From: Anaerolineae bacterium
GTDB lineage: Bacteria; Chloroflexota; Anaerolineae; Epilineales; JAHCIE01
Reading direction: 5' to 3'
Length of the DNA stretch: 64,000 nucleotides
Assembly (NCBI GenBank): GCA_046328505.1
Contig: JAXLWL010000004.1
Coordinates: forward strand, 9,559 to 73,558
The translations under genes and the position numbers were made by a program. The notes under the pieces are model-generated. The model ran no database searches. It was not told the DNA's origin and was given only the letters and a program-made list of their open reading frames with translations. This document shows, piece by piece, positions 5,156-60,970 of the stretch (position 1 is its first letter; the number at the start of each line of letters is the position of its first letter).

Positions 5156-5193
5156 TGTGATGCTCACGGGCATGGTCTCAACGGTAGAGGTTC

Positions 5194-31408: not shown

Positions 31409-31428
31409 GTGGGAGCGAGGAGGAAGTC

Positions 31429-34854: not shown

Positions 34855-35024
34855 GCCAATCCTGCCGTCCCACAACCTTCTATTCCTGTCCCCGCCCAAG
34901 CGGCTATGCTACTCGTGCATAACCGCTTGGTTGACTGTGTGACGTACCAGCCTATAATCAGCGGGTAGTGAGGGATGACCCGCTGACGGGTCTGTCTGAG
35001 CGTTGAGTGGCGGGGGGAAGGCGT

Positions 35025-38063: not shown

Positions 38064-38256
38064 CTCCTTTGAGGGGTTGAGGGCAGGCAGGTGAAACCCC
38101 CTCCTGCAGAGGGGGCCGGGTGAAGACCCTAACCCACCCAGTAGCAGAAGACCCCCACCCAGCCTCTCCCAGAGGGAGAGGCGCCTGACTTGTTCCCCTC
38201 AAACGCAGATGGCGAGGCCGGCAGAAGTTGACTTGGCCGGCCAAGGATGACAGACG

Positions 38257-41200: not shown

Positions 41201-41439
41201 GGGAATGGTGCAGCACGAAGTGGCTGGATAGCTATGACAGCTACGAAACGCGGGTCGATGATAGCATGACAGGAAGCGAAGACCGCGTGGTGCGTGGGAG
41301 CGCGTTCGACCTTCGTGGGGAATTCGTGGAATGTGCATTCCGCCTTGGGATTAGTTCAGTCGGTAGGAGCAGCAATCAGGGGTTTCGGGTGGTGTCCCCA
41401 GCCTCTGACTCTCTGGCCTCTGAATCCTCTGACCTCTGA
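38257..41439 (+). CDS. STAND NTPase paralogue: N-terminal ~145-aa domain, G/N-rich strand motif, NACHT domain, C-terminal FGE-sulfatase domain
   Basis: Walker A LLGDPGSGKTTFANFL, Walker B LLILDGLDEV. FGE signature RYPVTVMQYQAFV...LPTEAEWERAARH...GVHDMAGNVWEWCSTKW...VVRGSAF...GFRVV. N-terminus MDLNTWKQAARDRL... is paralogous to MDLEGWKQATRERL... of the preceding gene. Shared motif VKGNRNVAPAGDIRESTIFTGDNATYI at 38692-38766. Confidence 0.85.
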   Translation: MDLNTWKQAARDRLVAIRDAFRGRAPGTLYGALSAAAILPVVAAVNQGDFAALVALTGVVGGVGGNLIANQIQAWKDKSEAEIAANLTEKAQADDQWREALDTLIEKLDVVAAVEVGLSQADQQWFQETLQAEVERLGSRVTVNVKGNRNVAPAGDIRESTIFTGDNATYIERLDIRSAVFHTPPQPGHVDPKELLWTYLNQVISDTGALDLSGVDKRTASDPEAARLELAAVYTALDTLRLEERRRTLSSQTVEQMELPFLSERQSVLAFVNDAKYAALLGDPGSGKTTFANFLALCLAGEILGEDRANLARLGDAWKQDALLPVRVVLRQFAAHLPAPPDASASLLWDYIIRRLGPGLDGFAPLLRKHLVQHGGLLILDGLDEVPEAHHRREIVKGAVLDFKRQFPKVRILLTSRTYAYQNRLWRLPGFDEAVLAPFTPEQVDLFVNNWYAHMAQVRPNLSSDEAQGRAERLKETIHRESHLAELAERPLLLTLMASLHAWRGGALPEDREQLYDESVELLLDVWERPKEVVDSEGSTILQTESLAEWLRAPQADVRQALEALAFRAHRDQPQRTGAADIGEDALAGALLKVAKGRDLTLDRIIDYILDRTGLLVNLGEGIYSFPHRTFQEYLAARHLSETDFPGRLVELVRADPERWREVMLLAGAKVKRGTPFAAWALVDALCFGECGDGAGDADWYAALLAGQLLVETGMHKAAGTPATAAKVARVRGWLTRLVREGHLPPVDRAAAGRALGWLGDERPGVSIIVRNGAQIPDIDWIAIEPGPFIMGNDHPLADWAKHMETPQFTCQLITRPYRISRYPVTVMQYQAFVDADGYQNAQYWSLAEAAGVWRDKHTLRRVPYLVEDRIEWKEEWADQPLSYGVLYSAPNQPRVGVTWYEAAAFCAWLSEVLGKQVRLPTEAEWERAARHTDGRAYPWGNDFNPQRCNMGDTGIGAPSTVGIFPNGASACGVHDMAGNVWEWCSTKWLDSYDSYETRVDDSMTGSEDRVVRGSAFDLRGEFVECAFRLGISSVGRSSNQGFRVVSPASDSLASESSDL

Positions 41440-41464
41440 CTCCCTCTGGGTCTTTGTCCCTTGG

Positions 41465-41499
41465 GGTCTGGGGGCTTTGCCCCCAGACCGGATTTTGGG
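41465..41499 (+). terminator. GC-rich hairpin (11-bp stem GGTCTGGGGGC/GCCCCCAGACC, TTT loop) followed by GGATTTTGGG; terminator- or attenuator-like element 6 nt upstream of the caspase start
   Basis: Perfect inverted repeat at 41465-41489 with a short U-run after it. Lies between NACHT gene 2 and the caspase gene. Confidence 0.3.
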
Positions 41500-41504
41500 A
41501 GAAA

Positions 41505-42494
41505 ATGATGGCCAACACATTTGACCATGGCTACGCACTGCTCATCGGCGTCGGAACGTGCGCCTACACCGCCTGGTCGCTGCCGGTGACGGTCAAGGAC
41601 ATGGGGGCGCTGCGCGGCGTCCTGGCCGACCCAACGCTGTGCGCCTACCCCGACGACGCCGACCACCTGCGCCTGCTCCACGACGCCGGCGCGACCCGCG
41701 CCGACATCCTCGACGGCCTGGCCTGGCTTGCCGAGCGCACTGCGGCCGACCCCGATGCCACCGCCATCGTCTACTACTCGGGCCACGGATTGGTGGACAA
41801 GGCCAGCAGCTGCTACTACCTTATCCCCCACGACGTGCAGCCCTTCGACATTCCCGGCTCGGCCCTGCCCACCGACGACTTCCACGCCGCGCTGCGCAAA
41901 GTCAATGCGCGGCGCCTGCTCGTCGTCATTGATGCCTGCCACGCCGAGGGCATGGCGACAGCGAAGGATCAGCCTGCCTTCGCGCTGCCGAAGGGCTTCG
42001 AGCAGGAAGCGCCATCGAAGGGGCTGGTGGACGCGCTGAAGGAAGGCGAGGGCCGCGCCGTGTTCACCTCGTCGCGGGGAACGCAGAGTTCGTGGATTCG
42101 GCCTGACGGCGCGATGAGCATCTACACGTACCATCTCATCGAAGCGCTGCACGGCGCGGCGGCTCAACTCGGTGACACGACTGTGACGGTGGGCCAGCTC
42201 CAGCACCACCTGGGTCGAACGGTTCCCGAGAGCGCCCGCGCAATGTGGAAGCAAGAGCAGACGCCCTTCTTCGACACGGCGACCGAGGACTTCCCCGTGG
42301 CACTGCTGCGCGGCGGCAAGGGGCTGCCGGCCGGCGGATGGCAGGCGGTGGAACCGTCGACCGCGCCGCGTCCGCGGACATCCATCAAGGCAAAGGGCAA
42401 CCGCAATGTCGTGTCCGGCGGCGACATGCGCGGCAACGTCATCGTCACGGGCGACAACGCCAACATCCGGAGGGGAGATGACCAGGATGAGTGA
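41505..42494 (+). CDS. caspase-like (peptidase C14/CHAT-type) protease with C-terminal G/N-rich motif shared with the upstream NACHT proteins
   Basis: Catalytic dyad context IVYYSGHG and LLVVIDACHAEG. C-terminal tail KAKGNRNVVSGGDMRGNVIVTGDNANIRRGDDQDE (42383-42494). GGGAGA RBS then ATGATG. Confidence 0.8.
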   Translation: MMANTFDHGYALLIGVGTCAYTAWSLPVTVKDMGALRGVLADPTLCAYPDDADHLRLLHDAGATRADILDGLAWLAERTAADPDATAIVYYSGHGLVDKASSCYYLIPHDVQPFDIPGSALPTDDFHAALRKVNARRLLVVIDACHAEGMATAKDQPAFALPKGFEQEAPSKGLVDALKEGEGRAVFTSSRGTQSSWIRPDGAMSIYTYHLIEALHGAAAQLGDTTVTVGQLQHHLGRTVPESARAMWKQEQTPFFDTATEDFPVALLRGGKGLPAGGWQAVEPSTAPRPRTSIKAKGNRNVVSGGDMRGNVIVTGDNANIRRGDDQDE

Positions 42495-42896: not shown

Positions 42897-45186
42897 ATGA
42901 ACGAGCAAAGGCGCGAGTTCGGACTTCTTCTCACGCAAGGGCTGAAGAGTATCGCCGCCCGTCAACACAAGGGTCTGGGCGTCCTGGAGGATGAGCTCGG
43001 CTACGAACTCGGCGTCACCGGCTGGGCGATCCAGGGTTGGCGCCAGGATCGCATCCCGCCCCACCCTGGCCAGGTTTGCTCTTCTAGCCCGCAGATGTGT
43101 ACAGCAGGGAGGCATGGATCGCCAGTGGCTCCTCCGTTTCCTCACGCTGAGCCAGTACCCTGAGAAAGATGGATTGCTGGCTGAGTTATGTCCTGGAGAG
43201 GCTGAGCCGCGAGGGGCTGCGCACCATAACCTCCCCGGCCGTCCATACGAATCCTTCATCGGGCGAGAGAAGGAACTGGCAGACCTTGTGCCTATCCTTG
43301 CCCGCGAGCATCGTATCGGGGTCGTCTGCATTAGTGGGATCGGTGGCGTAGGCAAGACGGCGTTGGCCCAGGAAGTTGCCCACCGCTTCTGCACTGCGAC
43401 CTCGAAACTGCCCTCGGCCGACCGCTTTGAGGCTATCGTCTGGGTCACCGCCAAGCGGACGGAGCTTCTGGCACGAGGTCTCACGCAACGGCAGCCCACG
43501 TTTAGCGACCTCGACGGTGTTTACCGCGCCATCGCCGATGTCCTGGATTTGCCGGCGGTCATGCGCGCCGCGACGCGCGAAGAGCAAGAGCTTCTCGTGA
43601 CTCGCGTGCTCGGCGAACATCGGGTTCTCCTGGTGCTAGATAACCTGGAAGACGTGGATGACCCGGCTCTGATGGTATTCTTGCGCGATCTTCCCACTCC
43701 CAGCAAGGCCGTCGTCACCACCCGCCACCGCATCGACGTCGCAGCGCCGATCCATCTCCGCGCTTTGAACGAAAGCGATGCGCAAAAGCTCATTGCGTCG
43801 GAGTGCCAGCGCCATAATCTACAACTGACGAATGACGAATGCGACAAGCTGCTCCGCCGGACCGGCGGCCTGCCGCTGGCGATTGTGCGCACCATCGGTC
43901 GGATGGCCTGGCGCGGCAGCAGCATCGAGATGGAGCTGCGTCAACTTGGAGCGCCCACCTCCGAAATCTATCAGTTCTGCTTCGATAAGAGCATCGCTCT
44001 CATTCAGGGCAGCGATGCTCATCGTCTATTCATGGCCCTCGCTCTCTTCGCGGCTGACGCCAGTCGAACCGCCATCGGCGAGGTCGCCGGCTTGAATGGA
44101 GATACGTTGAGCCGCGACGAAGGATTGAGTGATCTCGACGTGCTTTCGCTGGTCAACAAGAGTGCTGACCGCTTCAGCCTGGACCCGCTGACAAAGGTCC
44201 GGGCACAGGCAGAACTCAGGGCGAATCCCGCTTTTGAGGAGTCAGCCCGCGAGCGCTTCCAGGATTTCTACACGCAGTTCGCTTTCGACACGTGTGGCGA
44301 AACGTACTGGGGAAGCTATCTTCGGCAGGAGCGCTATGACGAAGTTGAGCGAGAGTTCGAGAACATCCTGGCTGTGTTTTCCTATGCTCGCGAGGCGGAA
44401 GACAACCTGACGATCGTGCGCTTGTTCAGCTCGATTGTTCACTTCATGGCTCGCCGCAACCGGTGGCCGGAGCGTCTGTCCTGGGTCCATCCCGCCATCG
44501 CGGCAGCCCAACGGCTAGAGGATGTTGCGTCGGAGGTCTGGTTTCGAATTGATGCCCTGGGCTGGATGCTACTCCAGCAAGGACGGACTGAAGAAGCCCT
44601 CGAGCAGTTGAATCTCGTGGAGAAGCTTGTCCCCAGGCTTGATGTTGAAACAGCTTACGATGCGACGATCTTCGTCCATTGTTACCGGAGTCGAGCAGCA
44701 CGGCGGCGAGGTGATCTGGACGAAGCGTATCGAGCGCTCCAGCCGGTATTTGACCAACCATGCCATCCTTTTGCGAGCCGTCACCTGCTCACTTACCTGG
44801 GCGAGCTGCTGTACTACCGGGGAGAATACGCGCAGGCGCGCAAGGTTCTTGCCGAAGCCGCGGCGATCTGCGATGAGATCGGCGACGATTCGGGGCGCGC
44901 CATTGTTCTCAACACCCTCGGCCTCACGTTAGTGCAGCAGACGGCGTATGCCGAGGCCGAGCCAGTCCTCGACGAAGTACTCGCATTCGAAACGAGTCTC
45001 GGCCGCGTTCATGGAATCGCGCGCGCACAGCAGGGCCTCGCGATGCTGGCCTGGGCGCGTGGCGATCGCGCGAAGGCTCTTGAGCTGGGCCGCCGGTCCA
45101 GCGCCGGTTTTGCCCGCCTTGGCATGCGACAGGAAGAGGCCGAGGTCGCCAACCTTATAGCCGACTGGGGCAACGAGATCCATTAA
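42897..45186 (+). CDS. STAND NTPase: N-terminal HTH, NB-ARC ATPase, TPR repeats; N-terminal region carries a -1 frameshift near 43074-43078
   Basis: HTH MNEQRREFGLLLTQGLKSIAARQHKGLGVLEDELGYELGVTGWAIQGWRQDRIPPHPGQV (frame 0) continues as LLARRCVQQGGMDRQWLLRFL (frame +1), colinear with the intact paralogue at 58607. Walker A GVVCISGIGGVGKTALAQEV, Walker B VLLVLDNLED. C-terminal TPR-like repeats. Confidence 0.7.
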
Positions 45187-45297
45187 CTCTCTTCCCTAAC
45201 AGCTGCATGTTTCTTGACAGAGCGTAACCGTCTCCCACCCTCAGCGTTCTAATTAGTACACCTTGTGGACAGCAATGCGGCTGGAGGGAGAGAGGGA

Positions 45298-48900
<3,603 letters not shown>

Positions 48901-48982: not shown

Positions 48983-49990
48983 CTAAACTCTCGAGCGTGT
49001 AGCGTACCATCTTTGCCACGCTTGAACGAGGGCTGGATTTGTGCAACGCGCAATAATATCTTGTGCCATTTCCGCCCAAGCCCGACGGCGTGCCGCCTCA
49101 GCACACAGTACCAGAAGCAGATTGTGGTACGCGGCCGGAAGGTGGGAATGCCTCGCTAACCCTTCGAGTTCCTGCTGGGTGAGAACTGGCTGTATCATGT
49201 GATCGATGCTCTGAGCCATGGTATCAAGTACTCTCTCGGACTCCCTCTTTGGAAGCATCAACGAGTCAGGATTTTGCTCAGCGTGAACTGAGAGATCGAC
49301 GGATATGGATGGCAGGTCATTTTGGTATAGATGCAAGCTATCACTGAGGTGATGATAGGAGCCGACCTCAATACCTAACCAGCCCGCGACAATCTCATGG
49401 AGCGAGGTAAACTGGACTACGTTGTGTGGCAAACCTCGGAAGATGTCGTTGCTCCTCATAACTTGCAGCCACTCAAGTTTGCCGTTCCTCACCTTAAGCA
49501 TTGACAAAATATTGCAAGGGATATCCGGGTTAACTGGTTCGCCATCAGGGTTGGGAAAGTCAATGGCCGGGTCCCATATCTGCAAAACAACTTGCCGAGT
49601 GCTCGAATTGTTCTGTAAGGCCAGGAATGCGCGTTCTAGTTGATCGACTCCGAAGTGACGCCGCAAACGAAAGCCGTATGCCCCATGGTAGATGTCGCTG
49701 TAACCCGCAAACTTGGGCAGTTGTCGGTTCCAGTAATTTAGGAATTTGGCATCATTGCGACCATTCAGGATCCAGATGACCTCCGCAATGGCAAACGCCG
49801 GGTTGAGCGGCGGGTGGCGTGACACAATCCAACGTTGTCGAGGGTCGCCGATGCAAAAGACAGCGTGCAGAAGTTCAACGGTAGATCCGCCACGACCCGC
49901 ATGCGCATGAGTGCTTTGAGCACCCATCAATTGCTCCATTACCTGTTGCCATACTTCGTCAGCCGTTTGACCTTCATAGACGTGAATCAT
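48983..49990 (-). CDS. thymidylate synthase (ThyA)-fold protein, divergent; candidate pyrimidine dNMP hydroxymethylase/methylase
   Basis: TS hallmarks: AFAIAEVIWILNGRND, YGFRLRRHFG, SSTRQVVLQIWDP, and catalytic-Cys context PDIPCNILSMLKVRNGKLEWLQVMRSNDIFRGLPHNVVQFTSLHEIVA. Not canonical ThyA. Start at MIHVYEG (49990) with GGAGAG upstream. Confidence 0.7.
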   Translation of the reverse strand: MIHVYEGQTADEVWQQVMEQLMGAQSTHAHAGRGGSTVELLHAVFCIGDPRQRWIVSRHPPLNPAFAIAEVIWILNGRNDAKFLNYWNRQLPKFAGYSDIYHGAYGFRLRRHFGVDQLERAFLALQNNSSTRQVVLQIWDPAIDFPNPDGEPVNPDIPCNILSMLKVRNGKLEWLQVMRSNDIFRGLPHNVVQFTSLHEIVAGWLGIEVGSYHHLSDSLHLYQNDLPSISVDLSVHAEQNPDSLMLPKRESERVLDTMAQSIDHMIQPVLTQQELEGLARHSHLPAAYHNLLLVLCAEAARRRAWAEMAQDIIARCTNPALVQAWQRWYATRSRV

Positions 49991-51716
49991 GAACTCTCCG
50001 TCTTGCTGACAGCAGGTCATTCAGCCCCCATTTTGGGGGATACCAATAGGTTAACGGTTGGGACCGCCAGCGATATACCTGTTTGATACGCTTTCTCTCG
50101 CTTCTACCCTTGATATCTGGATGTGCTAGTCTTGCGTACTTATCGACCTCACAGAACAGATTCTGACAATCTATCAACTGAAGGGGCCTACCGAACAGAG
50201 ATTGAAATGGGAGCTCGAGACGAGCAAATTCTTGTTGTTGCCGGTCAGTTACCAGGCGAATCACGTCAACCTCGTTCAGGCCTCCAAGATCGGTAAAACA
50301 CTTCCGAATTCCGTCACGTGCGCCTGGCCCAGGTACAACAAACTCCATCTCACTGAAATTAGTGATCGGGCTGTAGTTGATGTCGATGACGTATTGATAC
50401 GCAAGAAAGTCGCCCAACATCGGATACGAACGAAGGAGTTCAAAAGCATGCCTCATTGAACGTGCCTCGGTCAGGCGCCGTGGAACCCCATCTTCCATCA
50501 TTCTCTCAAGCAACTTTAGATAGCTTCGGTGTTTCACACTGAAACCAAAACTGCTTGCACCCGAAGGCATGATATACGCTGCTGAGAAAATAGGCTCGCC
50601 GGCTTCTCGGGCTTGAGCGAGCACTTGATCGTATTTCTCAAAGGAGTAGTCTCGATAGGCAATTCCACCCAAAGCGCTAAGGAGGAGTTCCCAGGTTTCA
50701 ATCCGGTTGAATATCTTAAAAAGAAGTATTCTGAAGAAGACTTCATCGGCCGTCGGATCACCCTCATAGATGACCCTTTGGACAAGGTATTGACTCACTC
50801 GATCGGAAGCCCGATAAGCATTAGTGAACTTATGTCTGGCGAGAATAGGGTCGTTTGTCCAAGGGGGCGGCTCATTAGCAAACCTCCGAAAGAAGATGGC
50901 TTGTCGTTCAGTGGCAAACCTCCAGTAGGTGTCGTAGACCTCCGTCGGCTTGGCCGGGGAGAGACTGGAGAAGATAGTTAGGCCAGCTGGTCGTGGACCA
51001 GTTTGCGCACCTGGTAGGTCTAAGCTCAATTGCCCCTTTACTTCAGACTGTAGGAAACCAGCGCGCCTTGATGCCTGTCTGCTCCTTCGAGATGTTCCGC
51101 TCTTCTGACGCACTTCCTCAATCGTTGCCACAACGGTTTTCAGGGCGTCATCGACCGCGCCGTCGTTGTCGACAACCCAAGTAGGGTATTTTACCCTTTC
51201 CCGTTCGGCAAGTACGTCGTAGTTCCCTCTAACCATCTTCCAGAAATCGATAGGGTCATCCTCTCTGAGGGGCGAGGACCGTCGGATCAGGAAAGCCGCT
51301 GTCGGTACGACTTTGCCCCAATACTTTATCTCCACATCAAGCATGGCCTCGAGTACTGACCGACTTACTCCACGGGCTATTCCATATACCCAAGTGGACC
51401 ACCAGAAACGATCAAGTACGATAGATTTCCCGTCGCGTAGTGATGGGAGAATTCGCTTCTCAATAGTGTCAACGTGGGCGGCGACATGCAGCATTTGCAG
51501 ACTGGTTGGACTGAGAGACTCAATCCCAAACCTCTCGGTCGCATGATGCAGTTCGTAGACATGAAGTCCTAAAGTTCCAGCCTCACGTCCTGGAAACGCC
51601 AAATAGTCGCATGCGCGTCCCGTTGAGTTCAGATGTTGTGTTAGCGCCTCAGCAAGAGTTGTCTTTCCAACTCCATCTGGCCCCTCGAAGACGTACAGCT
51701 CGCCCCAACCGATCAT
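49974..51716 (-). CDS. fusion protein: N-terminal thymidylate-kinase-like P-loop dNMP kinase domain (~200 aa) plus C-terminal ~370-aa domain of unassigned function
   Basis: N-terminus VFEGPDGVGKTTLAEAL...AFPGREAGT...VLDRFWWSTWVYG parallels Tmk (EGxDGxGKTT / REPGGT / DR...S..AYQ). The C-terminal domain (YDTYWRFATERQAIFFRRF...YRASDRVSQYL...) has no family I can name. Overlaps both neighbouring genes, so the set reads as an operon. Confidence 0.65.
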   Translation of the reverse strand: MIGWGELYVFEGPDGVGKTTLAEALTQHLNSTGRACDYLAFPGREAGTLGLHVYELHHATERFGIESLSPTSLQMLHVAAHVDTIEKRILPSLRDGKSIVLDRFWWSTWVYGIARGVSRSVLEAMLDVEIKYWGKVVPTAAFLIRRSSPLREDDPIDFWKMVRGNYDVLAERERVKYPTWVVDNDGAVDDALKTVVATIEEVRQKSGTSRRSRQASRRAGFLQSEVKGQLSLDLPGAQTGPRPAGLTIFSSLSPAKPTEVYDTYWRFATERQAIFFRRFANEPPPWTNDPILARHKFTNAYRASDRVSQYLVQRVIYEGDPTADEVFFRILLFKIFNRIETWELLLSALGGIAYRDYSFEKYDQVLAQAREAGEPIFSAAYIMPSGASSFGFSVKHRSYLKLLERMMEDGVPRRLTEARSMRHAFELLRSYPMLGDFLAYQYVIDINYSPITNFSEMEFVVPGPGARDGIRKCFTDLGGLNEVDVIRLVTDRQQQEFARLELPFQSLFGRPLQLIDCQNLFCEVDKYARLAHPDIKGRSERKRIKQVYRWRSQPLTYWYPPKWGLNDLLSARRRVHDSRL

Positions 51717-52513
51717 ATCAGACCCCCCAAGCCAATTTGGATGCCGCCCTGATCCAACTTGCTGGAGCAGATGTTAGCCTCAACTTCCTCCTTCAATCCA
51801 CTCAAGGTTCGCTTGCCCACACCTCCTAGTGTCGCGACCCCGGTGATGCAATGCATCTGTGTGAGCTCGAGGCCCAACTCATGGGCCACGAAGCGCCCCA
51901 GGTTGCAGAGGCCCAAGTAATTTCCATAAGCTCGTTCGAAGAGGTACTGAGTAGCGTACACCCCCATAATAGCAAGCTCTTCACTGTTGAGCGGAATGAA
52001 CATTACATGCTGCAGGCAGGGAAAGCCACGCCGACGTTGATTACTGTGATCGAGTACTGGGTCGAAGATCATGGCTTGCAGAGCGCTACGCCGATGATTA
52101 CCGCGCTGATAGGTGGTAATAATGTGGTCAAGCTGATTCATCTTACCGGAACCATAGGCTATCAGGCGCTCAAAATAGACACCGTAATGATTTCGGGAGT
52201 CCTCCTTAAGTTTAGGTAGGACGCGAAGGTAACGCTCAAACAAGACGGCTCGCTCGCCGCCTGGATTCCAAAGAGATTGAGGGAAGATCGTGTTGGCTAC
52301 GGTACGGCATGACTGCTTACTGTGGCAGCTAAGGTGACGGTCGAGTACTTGACGGACGCTATCCATTTCAATGGGTGTACTGTTCGATAGCCCAGTCACG
52401 TCTACCACTAATGGCGTAATCTCTTCTACGCCCCGATCCATCAACTCCAGGAATGCTTGGGACCAGGCGAGCGATATGTTATTGCTGGCAATATGAACTG
52501 GCCTACTCCTCAT
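51713..52513 (-). CDS. second thymidylate synthase-fold protein (266 aa, divergent)
   Basis: YGVYFERL, QRGNHRRSALQAMIFDP and RRRGFPCLQHVMFIPLNSEELAIMGVYATQYLFERAYGNYLGLCNL align with TS motifs (YGFQWRHF / DSRRxIVSAWN / PCHxxFQFYV...). Shares ATGA overlap with the kinase gene. Confidence 0.65.
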   Translation of the reverse strand: MRSRPVHIASNNISLAWSQAFLELMDRGVEEITPLVVDVTGLSNSTPIEMDSVRQVLDRHLSCHSKQSCRTVANTIFPQSLWNPGGERAVLFERYLRVLPKLKEDSRNHYGVYFERLIAYGSGKMNQLDHIITTYQRGNHRRSALQAMIFDPVLDHSNQRRRGFPCLQHVMFIPLNSEELAIMGVYATQYLFERAYGNYLGLCNLGRFVAHELGLELTQMHCITGVATLGGVGKRTLSGLKEEVEANICSSKLDQGGIQIGLGGLI

Positions 52514-53375
52514 AATCAGGGTCCTCCAAGTATCGATACATCGCGCGCCCTACATAGTTCCTTCGTGAGACTCGAACAAAGGCTGACCAACCTGTAGTAG
52601 GATGAGCAAGTCGCCCAAGACCAGGCTTGCGGCCTGAAAGGATTGTCCTTGCCTCATCAGCCTCCTCCACCCGAACGCACATTCCTTCTACGGTTACGCC
52701 GTCTGGCAAGACCACGAAGTCATTGACCTGCAAGTCAATGGGGCGACCTTGCCAGTGAAGATCGACCGGGATCACATGTCCATCGACGTCCTCGCCCAAG
52801 ATATCCGATTGGATTTCTTTCGGCGTTACCCGCTTCAGTTGGTCTGCATGTGATGCTGAGACAAGCTTCAGCATCACGTGCATATGGGTAATGAGTGTGG
52901 TGTAGCCAACACCGAACAGTTCGGCTACCCTATAAACTTCATCCGGGTTACATGATGGGATGGTCCAGCCGCGCTCGGTGAAAGCCCGACCGACAGCCGT
53001 CTTGGGCATGAGGAACAAACCCGCGAAACAGTCAGCCACAAATTCCTCGCTATCAGCTAAGCCTTGCTCATATGGTCTTTCCAAGGCCTGGTCCATGCGC
53101 ATGCCGTGGCCGAACACATGATGCCCAAGTTCATGAGCACACGTAAAGGACTGACGCCCACGCGGTCTGTGCGATGATACCGTGATCAAAGGACCCCGCT
53201 GCCGAACATACATGCCCTCGAGGCTTGGCATATCGGTAAAGCGCACTTCAATGCCGAGATTCTCCACAACGCTATAGATCGAAACCGGATTGTAGATTCC
53301 CAATCCTTGCGCTTGCCTGAGAGCAAGCGCCCGCTCGTTCGCCTCGAGAACCAAACGTTTTTGCGTTCCATTCAT
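52503..53375 (-). CDS. ImmA/IrrE-family (DUF955) Zn-metallopeptidase
   Basis: HEXXH in FTCAHELGHHVFGH. Immediately downstream of, and overlapping, the XRE gene. Confidence 0.8.
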   Translation of the reverse strand: MNGTQKRLVLEANERALALRQAQGLGIYNPVSIYSVVENLGIEVRFTDMPSLEGMYVRQRGPLITVSSHRPRGRQSFTCAHELGHHVFGHGMRMDQALERPYEQGLADSEEFVADCFAGLFLMPKTAVGRAFTERGWTIPSCNPDEVYRVAELFGVGYTTLITHMHVMLKLVSASHADQLKRVTPKEIQSDILGEDVDGHVIPVDLHWQGRPIDLQVNDFVVLPDGVTVEGMCVRVEEADEARTILSGRKPGLGRLAHPTTGWSAFVRVSRRNYVGRAMYRYLEDPDYEE

Positions 53376-53722
53376 CGAGCATCCCCTTCGGATCGCAGAG
53401 CAGCAAGCAATTGAAGTAGACGATCCAGGTCGTCCTTATCGAGCTTCGCCAGTTCACGAGCCGCAAGTTCTATCTTGTCCTGCGCCAAGCCAGTTTCATC
53501 CGCTCCTTCGCCTAGCAACCAGTCTACGGACACGCCGTAAATGCGCGCGAGTTCGACTAATTCTTCGGACGATACACGTCTCCTTCCTGCCTCCGCTTCT
53601 GAAATCGAAGGGCGATGTAGTCCAAGCATCTTGGCTACTTGCCCTTGCGAAAGGCCAGCCATTTCTCGTGCGAGACGAAGTCTTGAGGCAAATGGTTTTC
53701 GCTTCTCATCAGTCCGGCTCAT
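53372..53722 (-). CDS. XRE-family HTH transcriptional regulator
   Basis: Start refined to ATG (MSRTDEK...) with AAAGGAGGG upstream. HTH LRLAREMAGLSQGQVAKMLGLHRPSISEAEAGRRRVSSEELVELARIYGVSVDWLL. Confidence 0.8.
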   Translation of the reverse strand: MSRTDEKRKPFASRLRLAREMAGLSQGQVAKMLGLHRPSISEAEAGRRRVSSEELVELARIYGVSVDWLLGEGADETGLAQDKIELAARELAKLDKDDLDRLLQLLAALRSEGDAR

Positions 53723-54011
53723 TGCCTTGCCCTCCTTTGGGTTCGACAAGCTCGTAGAGTCGCGCTACGATGTCCCTCACCTTTGGCGATTCGCCATTGA
53801 CTGGGGCTAACATAACCTTCATTGGGACCTCACGCCGGAGGGACTCCGATAGCATTACAGAAACTTCCGTTGCATTCAAACTATCAAATCCCTCCAGGTC
53901 ACCTATTGGACGAGTAGCGTCACTGATCCTCGGAACTGCATATCCGCTCCAGCTCTGATTCTCCACGAGAGCTTCAATCAGTGTGTTTCTGATCTCATCA
54001 ATAGTCATTAG
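53709..54011 (-). CDS. small hypothetical protein (100 aa), first gene of the XRE/ImmA operon
   Basis: ATG at 54011 with GAGAGGG 8 nt upstream (MTIDEIRNTLIEALVENQSW...). Overlaps the XRE start. Confidence 0.45.
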   Translation of the reverse strand, partial: LMTIDEIRNTLIEALVENQSWSGYAVPRISDATRPIGDLEGFDSLNATEVSVMLSESLRREVPMKVMLAPVNGESPKVRDIVARLYELVEPKGGQGNEPD

Positions 54012-54038
54012 CAATCCCTCTCTTACCACTGGTAAGAA
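54011..54038. promoter_or_regulatory. operator-like triple half-site TCTTACC-N4-GGTAAGA-N3-TCTTACC at the 5' end of the XRE/ImmA operon
   Basis: Perfect 7-bp inverted repeats at 54011-54017, 54022-54028 and 54032-54038, immediately upstream of the first gene of the minus-strand operon. Confidence 0.45.
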
Positions 54039-54269
54039 AATCTTACCACAACTTCGGGCATTTGTCAAGTGGCAGAACAGTGAATCGGCGGCAAGTTTGA
54101 AATGTTGCTGACACAGGACCGTTTGACTCTTTCTACAGCAGGGTAGAGATACACCAGCTGCGACCATTGTGCTCGGGTCGGTTGTTGGTGGCAGAGCGCA
54201 TCAGTGACATCCTGGACAATATGATAGTCGGGACGTATCATATGGGCGGTAGATGGAGACTTAGAAGCC

Positions 54270-55010
54270 ATGAAACAGACCGTCATTTTCAATGACACGC
54301 GGATGCGCCTGGATGATGCTTTCCAGGTGCGGCACATTGCCACCTTTCCCGTCCAAACATGCAGTTCAAAGGACCAGGTTGACGCGGTACTGGCGGAGTT
54401 CGGGGACTTCGACCAGATACCGGTGGCCAATGGCGACGACGTTGTGGAAGTCATCGAGCGCGAAGGCGCTCGGAAGCGCCCCATCGCATTAACCGATGTT
54501 GTGTCGGCCTACGAGCCGCTGGCTAAGTTCCTCCCGATGCTGGAGCACTCGCCCTACCGCCTCGTCACGGAAGGTGGCAAGGTAACAGGTATCGTCACGC
54601 GCAGCGACACTTTGAAATTGCCGGTGCGCTTGCTCGCCTTCATGATGATCACTCATCTCGAAATGTTGATGGCGGACCTCATCCGAGCCAGATATCCCGA
54701 CAGCACAGGCTGGCGGCGCCGGCTCTCCGAGGAGAGACGAGCCAGAATCGACCAGAAAGAAGAGGAGCTACGCCAGCCAGGCAATAATCCAGAGCCGCTG
54801 GAGCTGACCGATTTTGCGGACAAGCGTGAAATCGTCCGTGTTGAGTACGACCTTCCTAACCGCTTCCAGAAGGACCTCGGCGACATCGAACGTGTGAGGA
54901 ATTCAGTGGCCCACGCCGGCAACTACGCTCAGACCGAGGACAGACTGAGGAAGTTCGTCAAGCGCATTCGGCTGGCGGACAAGTGGATCGAGGAACTGAG
55001 CCGGCTTTGA
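54270..55010 (+). CDS. hypothetical protein with N-terminal CBS-like region and C-terminal Rx4H (HEPN-like) motif
   Basis: KVTGIVTRSDTLKLP resembles a CBS pair element. C-terminal ERVRNSVAHAGNY fits the Rx4-6H HEPN motif. Assignment is weak. Confidence 0.4.
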   Translation: MKQTVIFNDTRMRLDDAFQVRHIATFPVQTCSSKDQVDAVLAEFGDFDQIPVANGDDVVEVIEREGARKRPIALTDVVSAYEPLAKFLPMLEHSPYRLVTEGGKVTGIVTRSDTLKLPVRLLAFMMITHLEMLMADLIRARYPDSTGWRRRLSEERRARIDQKEEELRQPGNNPEPLELTDFADKREIVRVEYDLPNRFQKDLGDIERVRNSVAHAGNYAQTEDRLRKFVKRIRLADKWIEELSRL

Positions 55011-55174
55011 CCTGAGTTGGTGTAAAAACTCTAACCGAGGCTGACTTGCCGACGATGTTGAGTATAATCAGGCCGTGGTGTGCCTGTACGCAGAAAGGCG
55101 CGTGCTGTGTGAACACGCGTGACCGTCTCGACGAGGGCACGCCTCCCCAACCTCCAATCCCTAGAAAGCTGCCC

Positions 55175-58171
55175 ATGTCCGCCTACCGCAAAAAGCTTAT
55201 TGAAGTCGCCCTCCCCCTCGATGCCATCAACAAGGAGTCGGCGCGCGAGAAGTCCATCCGGCACGGCCACCCCTCCACCCTGCACCTGTGGTGGGCGCGC
55301 CGCCCCCTCGCCGCCTGCCGCGCCGTCCTGTTCGCCTCCCTCGTGGACGACCCCTCGGCCCTGCCGGAGCAGTTCCCGACCGAGGAAGCGCAGGAAGCCG
55401 AGCGCCAGCGCCTGTTCCGCATTATCGAGGCGCTCGTCAAGTGGGAGAACTCCAATGACGAGGCGGTGCTAGACGCGGCCCGCCGCGAGATCGCCCGCTG
55501 CGTGGCCCGCGCCCACGACGTCGAGCTGGCGGCGAACGCGGTGCCGGCCCAGGTCGCCGAGGCTTTGCGGGAGTACGCTCCGCCGGTCCTCGACCCGTTC
55601 TGCGGCGGCGGCTCCATCCCCCTCGAAGCGCAGCGCCTCGGGTTGGAGGCCCACGCCAGCGACCTCAACCCGGTGGCCGTGCTCATCACCAAGGCCCTCA
55701 TCGAGATCCCGCCCAAGTTCGCGGGGCAGCCGCCGGTCAATCCTGAGGCGCGCAAGGACTTGTTTGCGTCGGGGAACGTGTCTACCGCAGAGGGCGCAGA
55801 GGGGCGCGGAGCAGAGGGACAGGACAATACAAAATCTCATCCTCTGCGTTCCTCTGCGTCCTCCGCGGTGAATCCTTCTTCGGCGGCGGCGAGTCCTCGC
55901 TGGACCGGGGCCAAAGGGCTGGCCGAGGATGTGCGCTACTACGGCAAGTGGATGCGTGACGAGGCCGAGCGGCGCATCGGCCACCTCTACCCGAAGGTGA
56001 AGCTGCCGCCGGAGCAGGGAGGCGGCGAGGCGACGGGCATTGCCTGGCTGTGGGCGCGCACCGTCAAGTGCCCCAACCCAGCCTGTAGCGCGCAGATGCC
56101 GCTGGTGCGCTCGTTCGCGCTCTCGACCAAGAAGGGCAAGGAGGCGTGGGTTGAGCCGATCGTGAACCGAGAGGCCAAGACGGTGCGCTTTGAAGTACGC
56201 AGTGGCAAGAGGCAGTCGCACGAAGGCACTGTAAACCGAAGAGGCGCAACCTGTATTGTCTGCGGTACCACCGTTCAGTTCGACCACATCCGTAGTGAGG
56301 GCAAGGCCCACTGTATGGGCGCACAACTCATGGCGATTGTGGCCGAAGGCCAGCGCGAGCGAGTGTACGTCGCCCCAAATGCGGAGCACGAAGCGGTAGC
56401 GGCCCAAACCGAGCCTGATTGGGCACCAGAGACGGACTTACCAGAGCAGGCGCTTGGCTTCCGCGTGCAACTCTACGGCATGACAAAGCACCGCGACCTC
56501 TTCACCCCGCGCCAGCTTGTTGCTCTCACGGCTATGAGCGACTTAGTGGGCAAGGTGCGAGAGCGCGTACAGCGGGACGCCTCTGCAGCGGGGCTGACAG
56601 ACGACGTAGTGGCCATAAGTACAGGACAAACGGGGGCACAAGCATACGCCGATGCAGTCGCAACATATCTCGCGTTTGCGTTAGACAAAGCAATAGATCG
56701 CAATACGTCTCTTTGTACCTGGGAACACGGTATGGACAGGATGAGAGGCACGTTCGGACGTCAAACGTTGTCCATGATATGGGATTTCGCGGAAACAAAT
56801 CCCTTTGCTGGGGCGGGTGGCGACCTCGGCGGAAGTGTAGAATCACTATCGGAGGTACTAGAGACGCTGGGTCGAAATTGGCCGGGTGAGACCATACAAC
56901 GGGATGCAGCCTCTGGCACGCATATCCGGGAAGTCATATACTCCACAGACCCACCCTACTACGACAACATAGGATACGCAGACCTTTCGGACTTTTTCTA
57001 CATCTGGCTCCGCCACTCTCTGGTGGGTGTTTATCCCGAGCTATTTACTACTTTGTTGGTTCCGAAGACACAAGAGCTGATTGCAGCTACCTACCGCTTC
57101 AACGGAAGTAAGGAGCGAGCACAACAATTCTTTGAAGAAGGACTCCGGAGCGTATTCACGCAGATGCGCAAAGCGCAATCTTACGAATATCCGGTCACCA
57201 TCTACTATGCATTCCGACAGGCTGAAAGCGAGGAAGACGAGGAGGCGGCTTCGGGAACAAGTGCGAATGGAGCCGAGCTTCGATCGTCCACAGGCTGGGA
57301 AACCATGTTGGAAGGATTGCGCAATGCTGCATTCGCAGTAACCGGCACATGGCCAGTGCGAACAGAGCAGGCAAAGCGTATGCGCGATCAGGAAGCTAAC
57401 GCTCTTGCCTCCTCCATTGTTCTCGTCTGCCGGCCGCGGCCGGAGAATGCGCCTCTCGCCACGCGCCGGGAGTTCCTGACGCAGCTTCGGCGCGAGCTGC
57501 CCACCGCCCTCAAGACCCTGCAGCGCGAGAACATCGCCCCGGTGGACCTGGCCCAGGCCGCCATCGGCCCCGGCATGGCCGTCTTCTCCCGCTACAGCAA
57601 GGTTGTCGAGGCCGATGGCTCGCCTATGCGCGTTCGCACCGCTCTGCAGCTCATCAACCAGACCCTCGACGAGGTCCTGGCCGAGCAGGAGAGCGAGTAC
57701 GACGCCGACACGCGCTGGGCGGTCGCCTGGTTCGACCAGTACGGCATGAACGAGGGGCCGTACGGCGTCGGCGAGACCCTGTCCAAGGCCAAGAACACCG
57801 CCGTCGCTGCCCTGGTCGAGGCGGGTATCCTCCAGGCGCGGGGCGGCAAGGTGCGCCTACTGGCGCGGGATGAGCTCTCCCCCGACTGGTCGCCGACGAC
57901 GGATACCCGCCTCACCGTCTGGGAGGTGACGCAGTACCTGATTCGCGCCCTCCAGAAAGGCGGCGAGGGCGCGGCGGCAGACCTGCAGGCGCAGGTGGGG
58001 AGCGTGGGCGAGGTAGCGCGCGACCTGGCGTACCGCCTGTACACGACGTGCGAGCGCAAGGGCTGGGCGCAGGAGGCGCTGGCGTACAACAGCCTCGTCG
58101 TCGCGTGGCCCGCCATTCAGGCCCAGGCAGCGAGCCGGCCCACAGCTCCCACGCAAGGTACCTTGCTCTAG
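55175..58171 (+). CDS. DUF1156-family N6-adenine/N4-cytosine DNA methyltransferase with internal Zn-ribbon (COG1743-like)
   Basis: N-terminus MSAYRKKLIEVALPLDAINKESAREKSIRHGHPSTLHLWWARRPLAACRAVLFASLVDDP is the DUF1156 hallmark. Zn-ribbon CPNPAC...CIVCG. Catalytic DPPYYDNIGYADLSDFFYIWL. Confidence 0.85.
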   Translation: MSAYRKKLIEVALPLDAINKESAREKSIRHGHPSTLHLWWARRPLAACRAVLFASLVDDPSALPEQFPTEEAQEAERQRLFRIIEALVKWENSNDEAVLDAARREIARCVARAHDVELAANAVPAQVAEALREYAPPVLDPFCGGGSIPLEAQRLGLEAHASDLNPVAVLITKALIEIPPKFAGQPPVNPEARKDLFASGNVSTAEGAEGRGAEGQDNTKSHPLRSSASSAVNPSSAAASPRWTGAKGLAEDVRYYGKWMRDEAERRIGHLYPKVKLPPEQGGGEATGIAWLWARTVKCPNPACSAQMPLVRSFALSTKKGKEAWVEPIVNREAKTVRFEVRSGKRQSHEGTVNRRGATCIVCGTTVQFDHIRSEGKAHCMGAQLMAIVAEGQRERVYVAPNAEHEAVAAQTEPDWAPETDLPEQALGFRVQLYGMTKHRDLFTPRQLVALTAMSDLVGKVRERVQRDASAAGLTDDVVAISTGQTGAQAYADAVATYLAFALDKAIDRNTSLCTWEHGMDRMRGTFGRQTLSMIWDFAETNPFAGAGGDLGGSVESLSEVLETLGRNWPGETIQRDAASGTHIREVIYSTDPPYYDNIGYADLSDFFYIWLRHSLVGVYPELFTTLLVPKTQELIAATYRFNGSKERAQQFFEEGLRSVFTQMRKAQSYEYPVTIYYAFRQAESEEDEEAASGTSANGAELRSSTGWETMLEGLRNAAFAVTGTWPVRTEQAKRMRDQEANALASSIVLVCRPRPENAPLATRREFLTQLRRELPTALKTLQRENIAPVDLAQAAIGPGMAVFSRYSKVVEADGSPMRVRTALQLINQTLDEVLAEQESEYDADTRWAVAWFDQYGMNEGPYGVGETLSKAKNTAVAALVEAGILQARGGKVRLLARDELSPDWSPTTDTRLTVWEVTQYLIRALQKGGEGAAADLQAQVGSVGEVARDLAYRLYTTCERKGWAQEALAYNSLVVAWPAIQAQAASRPTAPTQGTLL

Positions 58172-58528: not shown

Positions 58529-58606
58529 TAAACGCAGAATCCTCGGAGCGTCCTTGCAGTAGAGTGTGACATGGTGCGGATTCCTACATGCGACAGGGAG
58601 GGCAAC

Positions 58607-60970
58607 ATGTCTCGGTTCGGTGAATTACTGACGGGAGCCATCAACAGCATCGCGGCATATGAGCGCAAGACCGCCTTGAATATCGAAACAGAGCTGGGCG
58701 GGAAGATCGGCCTGACGGCAGCGAGCATCCAGCGCTACAAAGCCGGCCATGTTCCGCCGGACGCGCGCACCATTGAGGTGCTGGCTTCGGAGGCAGTCCG
58801 GCGGGCCTATCTCAATCAGCAATGGCTGGAGCGCTTCCTAAAAGCGGCGCGCTACCCGGCGCCACAACGGTTAGTCGAACAGCTTTTTCCAGTTAGCACT
58901 CAGCCATCTCGCGCGCTCCGGATTCCCCACAATCTGCCCGCGCCATCCTATCCGCAATTCATCATGCGCGAGCGAGAGTATCGGCGCGTCGTCGAAGGCC
59001 TGAAGCAGCGAACACCGACTGTCGTGATATCTGGAATGGGCGGCACAGGGAAGACGAGCCTGGCGCGAGAAGTGGCGGGACATTGCCTCGAGGCCAGAGA
59101 CAACTTCCCCAGCTTCGCCGCTGCTGTATGGGTGAGCGACAAAGGGCGTCCCGGGACGACGACGTTAAGCGGTGTGCTGGACGAGATCGCTCGGACCTTG
59201 GATCACTGGGATCTCACGCAGTTGGCGCACGAGGAGAAGAAATCCCAGATTGAGCAGGTGCTACGTTGGCAGCCCGTGTTGATAGTGATCGACAACTTCG
59301 AGACCATCACCGACGGCAGCCTACTCGGCTGGGTTATGAAGCTGCCGCCGCCCAGCAAGGCATTGATCACGACGCGCGAGAAGCGGGAAGAGTTCCTGGG
59401 TAGTTGGCTAGAGGACCTGGGCGGCATGAATGAGGCAGAGGCGCGGGAACTTGTTGCCCAGCGCCTGCGGCAGCTGCGCATGACGAACCTCGTCACCGAA
59501 CCTAGTCAGCTGGACCCGTTGATTGATGCGACCGGCGCTAACCCCCAGGCCATGCAGATGGCAACCGGCCAGCTCAAGTATCAGCGCTCGCTGCAGCAAG
59601 TCATCGATGACCTGCACGCGGCGCGCGGCCAGGTATTCGACGACATCTTCGCACGATCGTGGAGTCTCATCGACAAGCCGGCGCAGCACGTGCTCCTCGT
59701 CGCGACTTTCTTCCCGACAAGTACCGCGGCCGAAGCCCTGGCCAAAGCCGCCGATGTCTACGACTTTGGCCTCGAGCAAGCCATTGAACTCCTGACCGAC
59801 CTGGCTCTGCTTGACGTTGAGCAAACCGGATTGGACCAGCCGCCTCGCTACGGGCTGCATCCCTTGGTACGCGCGTTCGCAAGCGAGAGATTGCGAGAGG
59901 AGACGACATTCGAATTGGCCGCCCGTCAACGTTGGTGTCGGTACTATGTCGAGTTCGCCGAGCAGCACATTGTCCGCACGGTGCCCCGGACTCGCTACTG
60001 GAATAGCCTGCTAGGCCGAGATCTGACGCTGGCCAATCCCGAGAAATCGAACCTATGTAGCGCCCTAGAGTGGGCTGAAGTGCATCACTGCGACGAACTG
60101 CTTGTCGAGCTAATGATACGATGGGCGCACTACATGGGTCGCCGCAACTTCCGTGAGCGGATCCAGTTCTCAAAGAAAGCAGCCGATGCGGCAGCACGTT
60201 TGGGTCACCAGTGGGATGAAGCGGTGTTGCTGATAGACGCCTACGGTTGGGTTTGCATTGAAGCCGGGTTGTTCGAGGATGCGCACCATGCCATCTCCCG
60301 TGGCTTGGAGTTAGCCTACTGCATCGAGTCGGCTGACCTGATTGCCCTTGGCAATGCGTTTCTCGCCAGACTATGTATCGACACGGGTGGCGACCTGGAT
60401 AGGGCGGGCGCGCTCCTTGACACGGCGCGTCTTGTCGTCCCGAATATCGGTTCAGATCTGGAGGCGGTCATCCGCGTCCGAGTGGACTTGGCGAGCGGTG
60501 ACCTGGCCGCCAAGCGGGGAGACTATCTCAAAGCGATCCAGTGCTATGAAGACGCGCTCGCAGATGGCTGGCATTACGGCGGCGAAGAGCCCGTCGTCGA
60601 GGCGAAATTCAGGCTCGGGCAAGTCTTCCTTGTCGAAGGTGACGTCCAGCGGCGGTTGGGTGAAGCTGCCCTTGCGCAAGGTGAGGCTGCCCATGCTGGC
60701 GGAGAACTCGAACAAGCCGAAATAATGCTGAGGCGCGCCGAGGAGTGTTTTACCCAGATACTCGACGCGCGGCACCAATCGAGCCTGTTGGACCTCACGT
60801 TCGCGCAGTATGGCCTGGCCTGCGTCGCCGTCCGCCGGGGCGACTTCGCGCGGGCGCGCACCTTCGCGTCGGAGGCAGAGGGCACGCTCTCGCAATTGGG
60901 CGTAAGCCACGCCCTGCGCGGCAAGGTGCGCCAGCTACTGGACGATCTGGAACACATGCGCTCGCCTTGA
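58607..60970 (+). CDS. STAND NTPase: N-terminal HTH, NB-ARC ATPase, TPR repeats (intact paralogue of 42897..45186)
   Basis: GGGAGGG RBS. HTH MSRFGELLTGAINSIAAYERKTALNIETELGGKIGLTAASIQRYKAGHVPP. Walker A VVISGMGGTGKTSLAREV, Walker B VLIVIDNFE. C-terminal TPR-like repeats. Confidence 0.8.
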   Translation: MSRFGELLTGAINSIAAYERKTALNIETELGGKIGLTAASIQRYKAGHVPPDARTIEVLASEAVRRAYLNQQWLERFLKAARYPAPQRLVEQLFPVSTQPSRALRIPHNLPAPSYPQFIMREREYRRVVEGLKQRTPTVVISGMGGTGKTSLAREVAGHCLEARDNFPSFAAAVWVSDKGRPGTTTLSGVLDEIARTLDHWDLTQLAHEEKKSQIEQVLRWQPVLIVIDNFETITDGSLLGWVMKLPPPSKALITTREKREEFLGSWLEDLGGMNEAEARELVAQRLRQLRMTNLVTEPSQLDPLIDATGANPQAMQMATGQLKYQRSLQQVIDDLHAARGQVFDDIFARSWSLIDKPAQHVLLVATFFPTSTAAEALAKAADVYDFGLEQAIELLTDLALLDVEQTGLDQPPRYGLHPLVRAFASERLREETTFELAARQRWCRYYVEFAEQHIVRTVPRTRYWNSLLGRDLTLANPEKSNLCSALEWAEVHHCDELLVELMIRWAHYMGRRNFRERIQFSKKAADAAARLGHQWDEAVLLIDAYGWVCIEAGLFEDAHHAISRGLELAYCIESADLIALGNAFLARLCIDTGGDLDRAGALLDTARLVVPNIGSDLEAVIRVRVDLASGDLAAKRGDYLKAIQCYEDALADGWHYGGEEPVVEAKFRLGQVFLVEGDVQRRLGEAALAQGEAAHAGGELEQAEIMLRRAEECFTQILDARHQSSLLDLTFAQYGLACVAVRRGDFARARTFASEAEGTLSQLGVSHALRGKVRQLLDDLEHMRSP

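Follow-up and report, generated by a model that had tools for sequence, protein, structure and literature searches.

What does an operon that joins two thymidylate-synthase-fold proteins to a P-loop kinase do in a bacterial chromosome? The operon in question lies in a 64,000-nucleotide stretch of an Anaerolineae bacterium genome (assembly GCA_046328505.1, contig JAXLWL010000004.1, positions 9,559 to 73,558), the whole of which is called the window here. Its six genes run in the same direction on the minus strand (48983-54008) and encode, in order, a putative acyl-carrier-like protein, an XRE repressor, an M78 peptidase, a divergent thymidylate-synthase-fold protein (TS2), a fusion of a Tmk-fold kinase with a PF18723 domain, and a second thymidylate-synthase-family enzyme (TS1). 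The listing of open reading frames (ORFs) contained every frame that a first-pass annotation, made from the letters alone, had placed there. That annotation saw in the operon a pyrimidine nucleotide or DNA modification module kin to the phage 5-hydroxymethyl-deoxyuridine (5-hmdU) pathways, under XRE/ImmA control and in a defence setting, a central guess which our analysis supported. Taking all evidence into consideration, we regard the chances as evenly balanced that the operon, cargo between the genes hmaA and hmaB, is an inducible anti-phage cassette which makes and processes non-canonical dU/5-hmdU nucleotides. This judgement combines two of different strength: that the operon is a defence cassette of the kind of DS-4, an anti-phage system of Escherichia coli, is highly probable, and the specific sequence of misincorporation followed by processing on DNA is put forward tentatively. 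Seen directly in the data are the gene content, the homologies, folds and conserved residues, the conservation of cassette and operator, the embedding in a helicase-methylase-ATPase (Hma) system and the homology of the core to that of DS-4.

TS1 is encoded by the last gene of the operon (48983..49990, minus strand; 335 aa; Pfam PF00303, 1.4e-23). Its score against the NCBIfam thyA model was 81.3, below the cut-off of 174.55, and in PHROG it matched phrog_5131 (7.7e-61). The closest phage relatives were the dUMP hydroxymethylases of SPO1-like, SP-10 and ViI-like phages, and the best relative of solved structure was MilA, a CMP hydroxymethylase (6e-26), with ThyA enzymes at about 1e-13. The remoteness from housekeeping ThyA proposed at first pass was borne out for TS1, which is nearest to phage dUMP hydroxymethylases and MilA. 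In an alignment with the E. coli ThyA sequence the full ThyA catalytic set was kept (R21, E58, Y94, R126, C146, R166, S167, D169, N177, H207 and Y209). The asparagine at position 177 indicates that the base would be uracil and not cytosine, and the Arg-Ser pair is read, by analogy with specificity work on MilA, as a preference for deoxynucleotides. We therefore describe TS1 as a putative dUMP hydroxymethylase, an assignment in which hydroxymethylase and methylase chemistry are indistinguishable by sequence. The catalytic cysteine context ascribed to both TS-like proteins was present, TS1 and TS2 each retaining the Pro-Cys nucleophile, and the SRR-like phosphate-binding stretch claimed for both held in part, reading T-R-Q with a single arginine in TS1 and H-R-R in TS2.

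The preceding gene (49974-51716, minus strand) encodes the 580-aa fusion protein, in which the kinase domain (aa 1-207, 51096..51716) is joined by a disordered linker (aa 208-249) to the PF18723 domain (aa 250-580, 49974..50969). P-loop and DRF motif of the kinase are intact; invariant His77 and His81 stand where the canonical dTMP-stacking Phe and phosphate-binding Arg would be, and this altered acceptor pocket disfavours plain dTMP as the substrate. The kinase scored 48.3 against NCBIfam tmk (cut-off 83.25), and the Pfam scan of the whole protein returned Thymidylate_kin and generic AAA families, not PF18748 of the 5-HMUDK type. The PADLOC model PDC-M51B was touched by the N-terminal kinase domain only, and TS1 and TS2 had no PADLOC match. 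An ordinary thyA plus tmk was rejected as an identity for these genes, since TS1, TS2 and the kinase all scored under the NCBIfam cut-offs; the ThyA-paralogue alternative raised by the first-pass annotation falls for the same reason.

The C-terminal domain of about 370 aa, for which a comparison with hypermodification families had been suggested, was identified as PF18723 ('HMUDK_hel'; Pfam, 5e-113). By tblastn it was found in 514 records of 50,697 phage genomes, mainly those of ViI-like, M6-like, SP10-like and Microbacterium phages, and the phage homologues, where named, are called 'aGPT-pyrophosphorylase clade 1'; one of them, the 'Pplase1' protein of phage Guerrero, itself matched PF18723 in the Pfam scan (9e-83). 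In phage M6 the ORF after the 5-HMUDK position matched PF18723 (3e-55) and was followed by Nmad5 and a TS-like gene. The domain did not belong to aGPT-Pplase clade 2, the amino-acid:DNA transferases with an E-T-x-x-C motif. Its own family shares the invariant residues Q518-N519-x-x-C522-E523-x-x-K526-Y527, a suggestive resemblance to the clade-2 motif, which reads 'QEVETVLCKW' in M6 gp51 and comprises Glu243, Thr244 and Cys247 in PUGT (PMC11472151).

These relationships bear on a first rival explanation, pool starvation, by which dUMP, methylene-tetrahydrofolate and dTMP/dCTP would be drained to dead ends and phage DNA would stall without dTTP. As in the dCTP-deaminase and dGTPase defences, no modified base would need to enter DNA. 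We think this rather unlikely, as the phage relatives of PF18723 sit in DNA-level modification clusters and base flipping in duplex DNA is what its closest functional structural relative, PUGT, performs (PMC11472151); mere depletion, moreover, would not call for two TS-fold proteins, a kinase and a carrier.

The phage route of thymidine hypermodification runs from a dUMP hydroxymethylase through 5-HMUDK to an aGPT-Pplase clade 2 amino-acid:DNA transferase and is represented by phages M6, ViI, SP10, PhiW-14 and PaMx11 (PMC5889632, PMC8989533, PMC11472151). The operon differs from it in that the kinase is of the Tmk family and not the phage 5-HMUDK family, that the helical domain belongs to clade 1 and not to the characterised clade 2, and that the cassette is repressor-controlled and carried on a bacterial chromosome or plasmid. 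Tailoring genes of the pyridoxal-phosphate, radical-SAM, FAD or acetyltransferase kind were found neither in the operon nor in its flanks.

The bacterial system with the same core is DS-4 (working ID NTTI), which came from the DefensePredictor screen (Science 2026) and was anti-phage in plaque assays (PMC13092281). Its genes follow the order TS, 'adenylate kinase'-type dNMP kinase, PF18723 protein, TIR and Nmad2, and the same study counts 5-hmU kinase and thymidylate synthase among the domains newly implicated in defence (PMC13092281). TS1 is 27% identical to DS-4A (2e-18) and the PF18723 domain of the fusion 27% identical to DS-4C (2e-31), in which the stretch corresponding to the invariant motif reads A-C-E-I-D-K. 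What the two systems share is an operon that combines a TS-family gene with a P-loop nucleotide kinase and a PF18723 protein. DS-4, however, has a separate, adenylate-kinase-like kinase and a single TS, whereas here a Tmk-fold kinase is fused to PF18723 and two TS-fold proteins are present; DS-4 is also without the carrier protein, TS2 and the XRE/M78 regulators. ORFs for TIR or Nmad2 were found neither in nor beside the operon by ORF list and Pfam; related loci have them.

TS2 (51713..52513, minus strand; 266 aa; TIGR03283, 4.6e-12) is the more divergent of the two TS-fold proteins. The Pfam scan gave no match and a sequence search of the PDB returned nothing, and the score against NCBIfam thyA was 45.9 (cut-off 174.55). 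The AlphaFold model (pLDDT 90.9) nevertheless matched MilA (8e-10), phage dCMP hydroxylase and many ThyA structures in Foldseek, at values from 8e-10 to 1e-7. The family retains Cys166 as the Pro-Cys nucleophile, Asn198, Tyr113 and Arg141/142; equivalents of ThyA Arg21, Glu58, Arg166 and Asp169 were missing in the residue mapping by hhalign, a weak profile alignment. What the first-pass annotation had called a TS-like protein keeps the fold and the cysteine but lacks half of the ThyA active-site set, which makes a conventional folate-dependent dUMP methylase unlikely. TS2 formed 1385 clusters (50% identity) at E <= 1e-3 in 1.84 billion representatives and occurred on 23 plasmids, 13 of them conjugative; no match was found across the 50,697 phage genomes.

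The first gene (53709..54008, minus strand) encodes a protein of 99 aa with an invariant GFDS motif, which the first-pass annotation had listed as a small protein ahead of the XRE and ImmA-like genes; all three are present, and the small protein can be specified as acyl-carrier-like on the strength of weak matches. Pfam PP-binding was matched weakly (0.016), and in a search of the PDB with the family profile 38 of 43 matches were acyl carrier proteins (ACPs) aligned on the DSL serine, all of them weak (E 0.013 to 0.8). A homologue search with the 99-aa sequence returned only itself, and the family was put together by synteny; in its alignment F41 and S43 are invariant and G40 and D42 occur in at least 90% of the sequences. 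The homologue on the plasmid of strain PCC 7113 is named 'acyl carrier protein' by NCBI. The serine of GFDS is presumably the residue that would bear phosphopantetheine. In the NCBI record of the metagenome-assembled genome (MAG), the XRE protein (MFN8473883.1) and the CBS protein encoded beyond the carrier gene (MFN8473884.1) have consecutive accessions, which suggests that the carrier gene was left without annotation there. For the identical Anaerolineae MAG proteins NCBI gives the names 'thymidylate synthase', 'putative DNA base hypermodification protein', 'ImmA/IrrE family metallo-endopeptidase' and 'helix-turn-helix transcriptional regulator'. The ViI-like Salmonella phage Guerrero (L039) carries a 'putative acyl carrier protein' (10468-10638) about 4.4 kb downstream of its PF18723 protein Pplase1 (4827-6050), which may be fortuitous or may mirror, on the phage side, the association of carrier and PF18723.

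With a carrier in the operon and with MilA heading the solved-structure matches of TS1 and of TS2, the biosynthesis of a small molecule has to be weighed: a modified nucleoside or nucleotide would be made on a phosphopantetheinyl carrier and serve as a secreted antibiotic or as an intracellular antiviral analogue. MilA, the CMP hydroxymethylase, offers a precedent in mildiomycin biosynthesis, and many relatives of the cassette have phosphopantetheinyl transferases. Genes for adenylation, condensation, ketosynthase, glycosyltransferase or export functions, on the other hand, occurred in none of the cassettes examined, and the defence embedding, the co-occurrence with TIR-Nmad2, the core common with DS-4 and the CapH/CapP-type control speak for a different purpose. 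We judge such a pathway improbable.

The XRE-family helix-turn-helix repressor (53372..53722, minus strand; 116 aa; Pfam HTH_3, 1.1e-15) and the M78 (ImmA-IrrE) zinc metallopeptidase (52503..53375, minus strand; 290 aa; Pfam Peptidase_M78, 3.9e-15) are encoded by adjacent genes at the head of the operon. They matched the PADLOC models capH (2.4e-14) and capP (2.9e-19) and form a pair of the CapH/CapP type, in agreement with the XRE/ImmA control proposed at first pass. A promoter scan gave TTGACA-17-TAAGAT with an extended -10 element at 54068-54040, and direct sequence reading plus a script located a perfect palindrome with 8-nt arms, TGGTAAGA-ttt-TCTTACCA (54048-54030), which overlaps the promoter -10 and is followed at once by a third half-site, GTGGTAAGA (54029-54021); promoter, palindrome and half-site together span 54021..54068 on the minus strand. 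In the 64-kb window the core GTAAGA-N3-TCTTAC has a single copy where 0.00 would be expected. Of the 41 loci fetched, 20 likewise contain exactly one copy, which lay directly upstream of the carrier gene wherever its position was checked; these loci belong to Chloroflexota, Calditrichota, Acidobacteriota, Pseudomonadota, Bacteroidota and Cyanobacteriota. We presume the palindrome to be the operator of the XRE repressor, and its conservation across phyla and its place over the -10 element argue for an operon that is normally repressed. Release by proteolysis of the repressor is the known behaviour of CapH/CapP, ImmR/ImmA and DdrO/IrrE and the basis of our analogy. As in these systems, among them CapH/CapP, which controls CBASS and other defence operons, an XRE and an M78 gene head a defence operon and a palindromic operator covers the promoter; the operon differs in its cargo and in the extra carrier gene ahead of the regulators.

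The comparison was extended to 27 genome loci found with the fusion protein, to metagenomic contigs and to plasmids, all scanned with phmmer. The cassettes resolved into three blocks. Block A, inherited as a unit, comprises carrier, XRE, M78 and TS2; the carrier was seen in 15 of the 17 loci with this block, which recurs in at least seven phyla as well as on conjugative plasmids. Block B consists of PF18723, a kinase and a dU-branch enzyme, and block C of TIR and Nmad2 as in DS-4. The cassette of the window is A + B and DS-4 is B + C; three loci (L005, L009 and L014) have all three. L005 bridges both architectures, its single array uniting carrier-XRE-M78, PF18723, TS1, TIR and Nmad2; a separate TS2 was not detected in this locus, where an 846-aa ORF covers the expected positions of TS2, kinase and PF18723. 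Across 17 cassettes the kinase of block B is Tmk-fused, separate, or MazG_C, which DefensePredictor predicts to be a nucleotide kinase (PMC13092281), and the dU enzyme is TS1, a dCTP-deaminase-like protein, MazG, or a 2OG-Fe(II) oxygenase (DIOX_N/2OG-FeII_Oxy, of the thymine-7-hydroxylase family type). Such exchange of non-homologous parts argues for three requirements: a kinase activity, a means to supply or alter dU nucleotides, and an enzyme with a glycosylase fold. ACPS phosphopantetheinyl transferase genes accompanied eight of the 17 block-A loci and none of the loci with block C only.

Several loci of this survey showed further enzymes. In the lineage of L033 (9844-11595) and L034 (6661-8412), TS1 is replaced by the 2OG-Fe(II) oxygenase together with an Sfp-type phosphopantetheinyl transferase, and this oxygenase may provide an oxidative path to 5-hydroxymethyl-uracil. 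In L035 a gene of the NTPase_I-T (inosine/xanthosine triphosphatase) family, another nucleotide-pool enzyme, directly follows TS1 (10716-11090). The plasmid NZ_CP133481.1 of Acuticoccus sp. MNP-M23 (L041, 2862-8538) encodes a dCTP deaminase, a small protein, an HTH protein, an ImmA/IrrE protein, a C1 peptidase and a TS2-like protein, and on the opposite strand a gene annotated as uracil-DNA glycosylase, directly downstream of TS2, and a MazG gene; the stretch examined has no annotated gene of the PF18723 type. A papain-like C1 peptidase between M78 and TS2 was also seen in L023.

The operon lies between hmaA, a SNF2/DUF3883 helicase gene (45265..48900, plus strand; PADLOC HmaA E = 0, 1691 bits), and hmaB, a DUF1156 methylase gene (55046..58171, plus strand; PADLOC HmaB E = 0), with HmaC (DUF499; PADLOC E = 0) further on, from 61037 to the window end. 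The first-pass annotation had recognised these genes but placed the operon beside a helicase-DUF3883 gene and near a DUF1156/DUF499 system; it is in fact inside Hma. Payne et al. (bioRxiv 10.1101/2024.01.29.577857) found that 62.7% of 1,485 Hma systems carry embedded genes; about 23% of the embedded genes are parts of known defence systems, and for seven further candidates among them an anti-phage effect was confirmed. Like other Hma cargo, such as Septu and the HEC/PDC candidates, the cassette occupies the site between hmaA and hmaB and has a foreign base composition; PADLOC-DB v2 has no model for it. None of the other cassette copies examined was inside Hma. A role as an Hma component was therefore ruled out, and the cassette is best described as autonomous cargo.

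This distribution also bears on the marking of self DNA, in which a modified thymine on host DNA would serve as a label read by Hma or by another restriction module. The site inside a helicase-methylase-ATPase system and the homology to phage DNA-modification enzymes would suit such a label, but the cassette stands outside Hma at every other locus examined, an operator over the -10 element implies a normally silent operon, unlike a constitutive mark, and no cognate modification-dependent or modification-blocked nuclease is conserved alongside. We hold this explanation to be very improbable.

The same flanks speak against a prophage remnant or a phage-derived counter-defence module left in the chromosome. 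The guanine-plus-cytosine (GC) content is 0.50-0.53 across 49-54 kb and 0.62-0.70 on either side, which confirms the drop reported at first pass; low GC, the PHROG matches of TS1, kinase and PF18723 and a repressor/antirepressor pair of a type frequent in prophages would all be expected of phage DNA. However, hmaA and hmaB form the flanks and phage structural, integrase and lysis genes are absent there, TS2 is unmatched in the phage genomes searched, and in many phyla the order of the six genes is kept in the absence of phage genes, on chromosomes as well as on conjugative plasmids. We give a phage origin of this kind hardly any weight. The end of an intact prophage, which the first-pass annotation had named as an alternative, was rejected because the flanking genes are those of Hma. 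Of the three roles that it had considered, the anti-phage measure is thus favoured and constitutive self-modification and a prophage remnant are disfavoured.

The genes overlap at every junction. Overlaps of the ATGA type, noted for the junctions at first pass, were found at two of them, with 4 nt each (51713-51716, TS2 stop and kinase start; 53372-53375, XRE stop and M78 start), the remaining ones measuring 11 nt (52503-52513), 14 nt (53709-53722) and 17 nt (49974-49990). The starts behind these three are those of independent gene callers on identical metagenomic contigs.

From these data we infer catalytic steps, a trigger and an antiviral outcome as follows. At rest, the CapH-like repressor would occupy GTAAGA-N3-TCTTAC over the -10 element and keep the operon off; upon infection or DNA damage the CapP-like M78 peptidase would cut it, by analogy with the pairs named above. 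TS1 would convert dUMP to 5-hydroxymethyl-dUMP (5-hmdUMP), a step to which its complete ThyA catalytic set, its uracil-specifying Asn and its dUMP-hydroxymethylase relatives point. The Tmk-fold domain would phosphorylate 5-hmdUMP or its 5-CH2OH group, and the base analogue would be built into whichever DNA is replicated most actively, in an infected cell that of the phage. The PF18723 domain, with the fold of the base-flipping transferase PUGT, which acts on 5-phosphomethyl-deoxyuridine (5-PmdU), and with its Cys-Glu-x-x-Lys-Tyr motif, would then act further on the aberrant base in DNA, either excising it or forming an adduct, and so block phage replication. TS2 and the carrier, in one block with the regulators, may share in this chemistry or in its control.

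Several points weigh against this proposal. In vitro, M6 gp54 (the kinase) and gp51 (clade 2) were enough for kinase action and glycine transfer and gp55 was dispensable (PMC8989533), so that PF18723 clade 1 is without a known activity. The hhalign comparison of the PF18723 family alignment with M6 gp51 gave no signal, which leaves the equivalence of Cys522 with Cys247 of PUGT a conjecture. DS-4 itself protects weakly, by about 1 log on lambda and with small plaques, and its mechanism was not dissected (PMC13092281); TIR, its likely effector, is missing from the present cassette. Kinase-less variants without TS1 would need another source of the aberrant nucleotide. Finally, TS2 is without the residues for folate-dependent catalysis, which leaves its role unexplained by the model, and a role for the carrier protein does not follow from it either. 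For the carrier we can offer only a long shot: once 4'-phosphopantetheinylated, the carrier might serve as co-substrate, its thiol attacking an exocyclic 5-methylene intermediate formed from an activated 5-(phospho)hydroxymethyl-uracil by a Cys-dependent enzyme, either TS2 or the PF18723 domain. Chemical precedent exists in a phage clade-2 transferase that takes a thiol, beta-mercaptoethanol, as nucleophile on 5-PmdU DNA (PMC8989533). If true, a protein would be covalently tethered to a nucleotide or to phage DNA, and an enzymatically made DNA-protein crosslink would be the immune effector.

Other genes of the window fill the surroundings of the cassette. A 246-aa protein with a CBS domain (54270-55010, plus strand; Pfam 2e-6) and a C-terminal RNSVAH motif of the Rx4H HEPN type can be aligned from end to end with DS-11, a single-gene defence that has been validated (CBS+HEPN; 25% identity), the RNDVMH of which falls in register; divergently oriented to the cassette and likewise low in GC, it is a second cargo of the hmaA-hmaB gap. 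Two proteins of 799 and 731 aa (58571-60970 and 42991-45186, both plus strand) are by sequence of the type of STAND NTPases with tetratricopeptide repeats and have no PADLOC match; the former gene, between hmaB and hmaC, is a third embedded gene and the latter lies just upstream of hmaA. Further upstream, a caspase-like protease gene (41454-42494, plus strand; PADLOC 'caspase', 4.6e-16) is preceded by three very large ORFs (31405-41439, plus strand; 1149, 1018 and 1060 aa) with no or marginal PADLOC matches, and these four genes may form another conflict system upstream of the Hma island.

The literature searched contains no description of the cassette's architecture, and PADLOC-DB v2 lacks it as well. 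The finding is not categorically new, since the domain families had been defined computationally and DS-4 had been validated; the first definition of these domains is reportedly due to Iyer et al. 2013 and Burroughs et al. 2015. What is distinctive is block A with TS2, carrier and conserved operator, and the combination of a Tmk-PF18723 fusion with a dUMP-hydroxymethylase-like TS.

In summary, enzymes that phages use for disguising their thymines appear here on the bacterial side, behind a damage-type switch and inside a defence system. The related DS-4 shows that such cassettes can protect against phage. The variant described here is widespread, with its 1385 TS2 clusters, at least seven phyla and conjugative plasmids, and it brings three conserved additions: a TS-fold protein that lacks the folate and phosphate ligands, a carrier often accompanied by a phosphopantetheinyl transferase, and an operator kept across phyla. 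Cultured carriers of the cassette exist in Allocoleopsis franciscana PCC 7113 (plasmid pMIC7113.01) and on Sinorhizobium fredii plasmids, which makes it directly testable. Identification of the product would give PF18723 its first activity, lacking even in phages, and could reveal a new way of killing phages through non-canonical pyrimidines.

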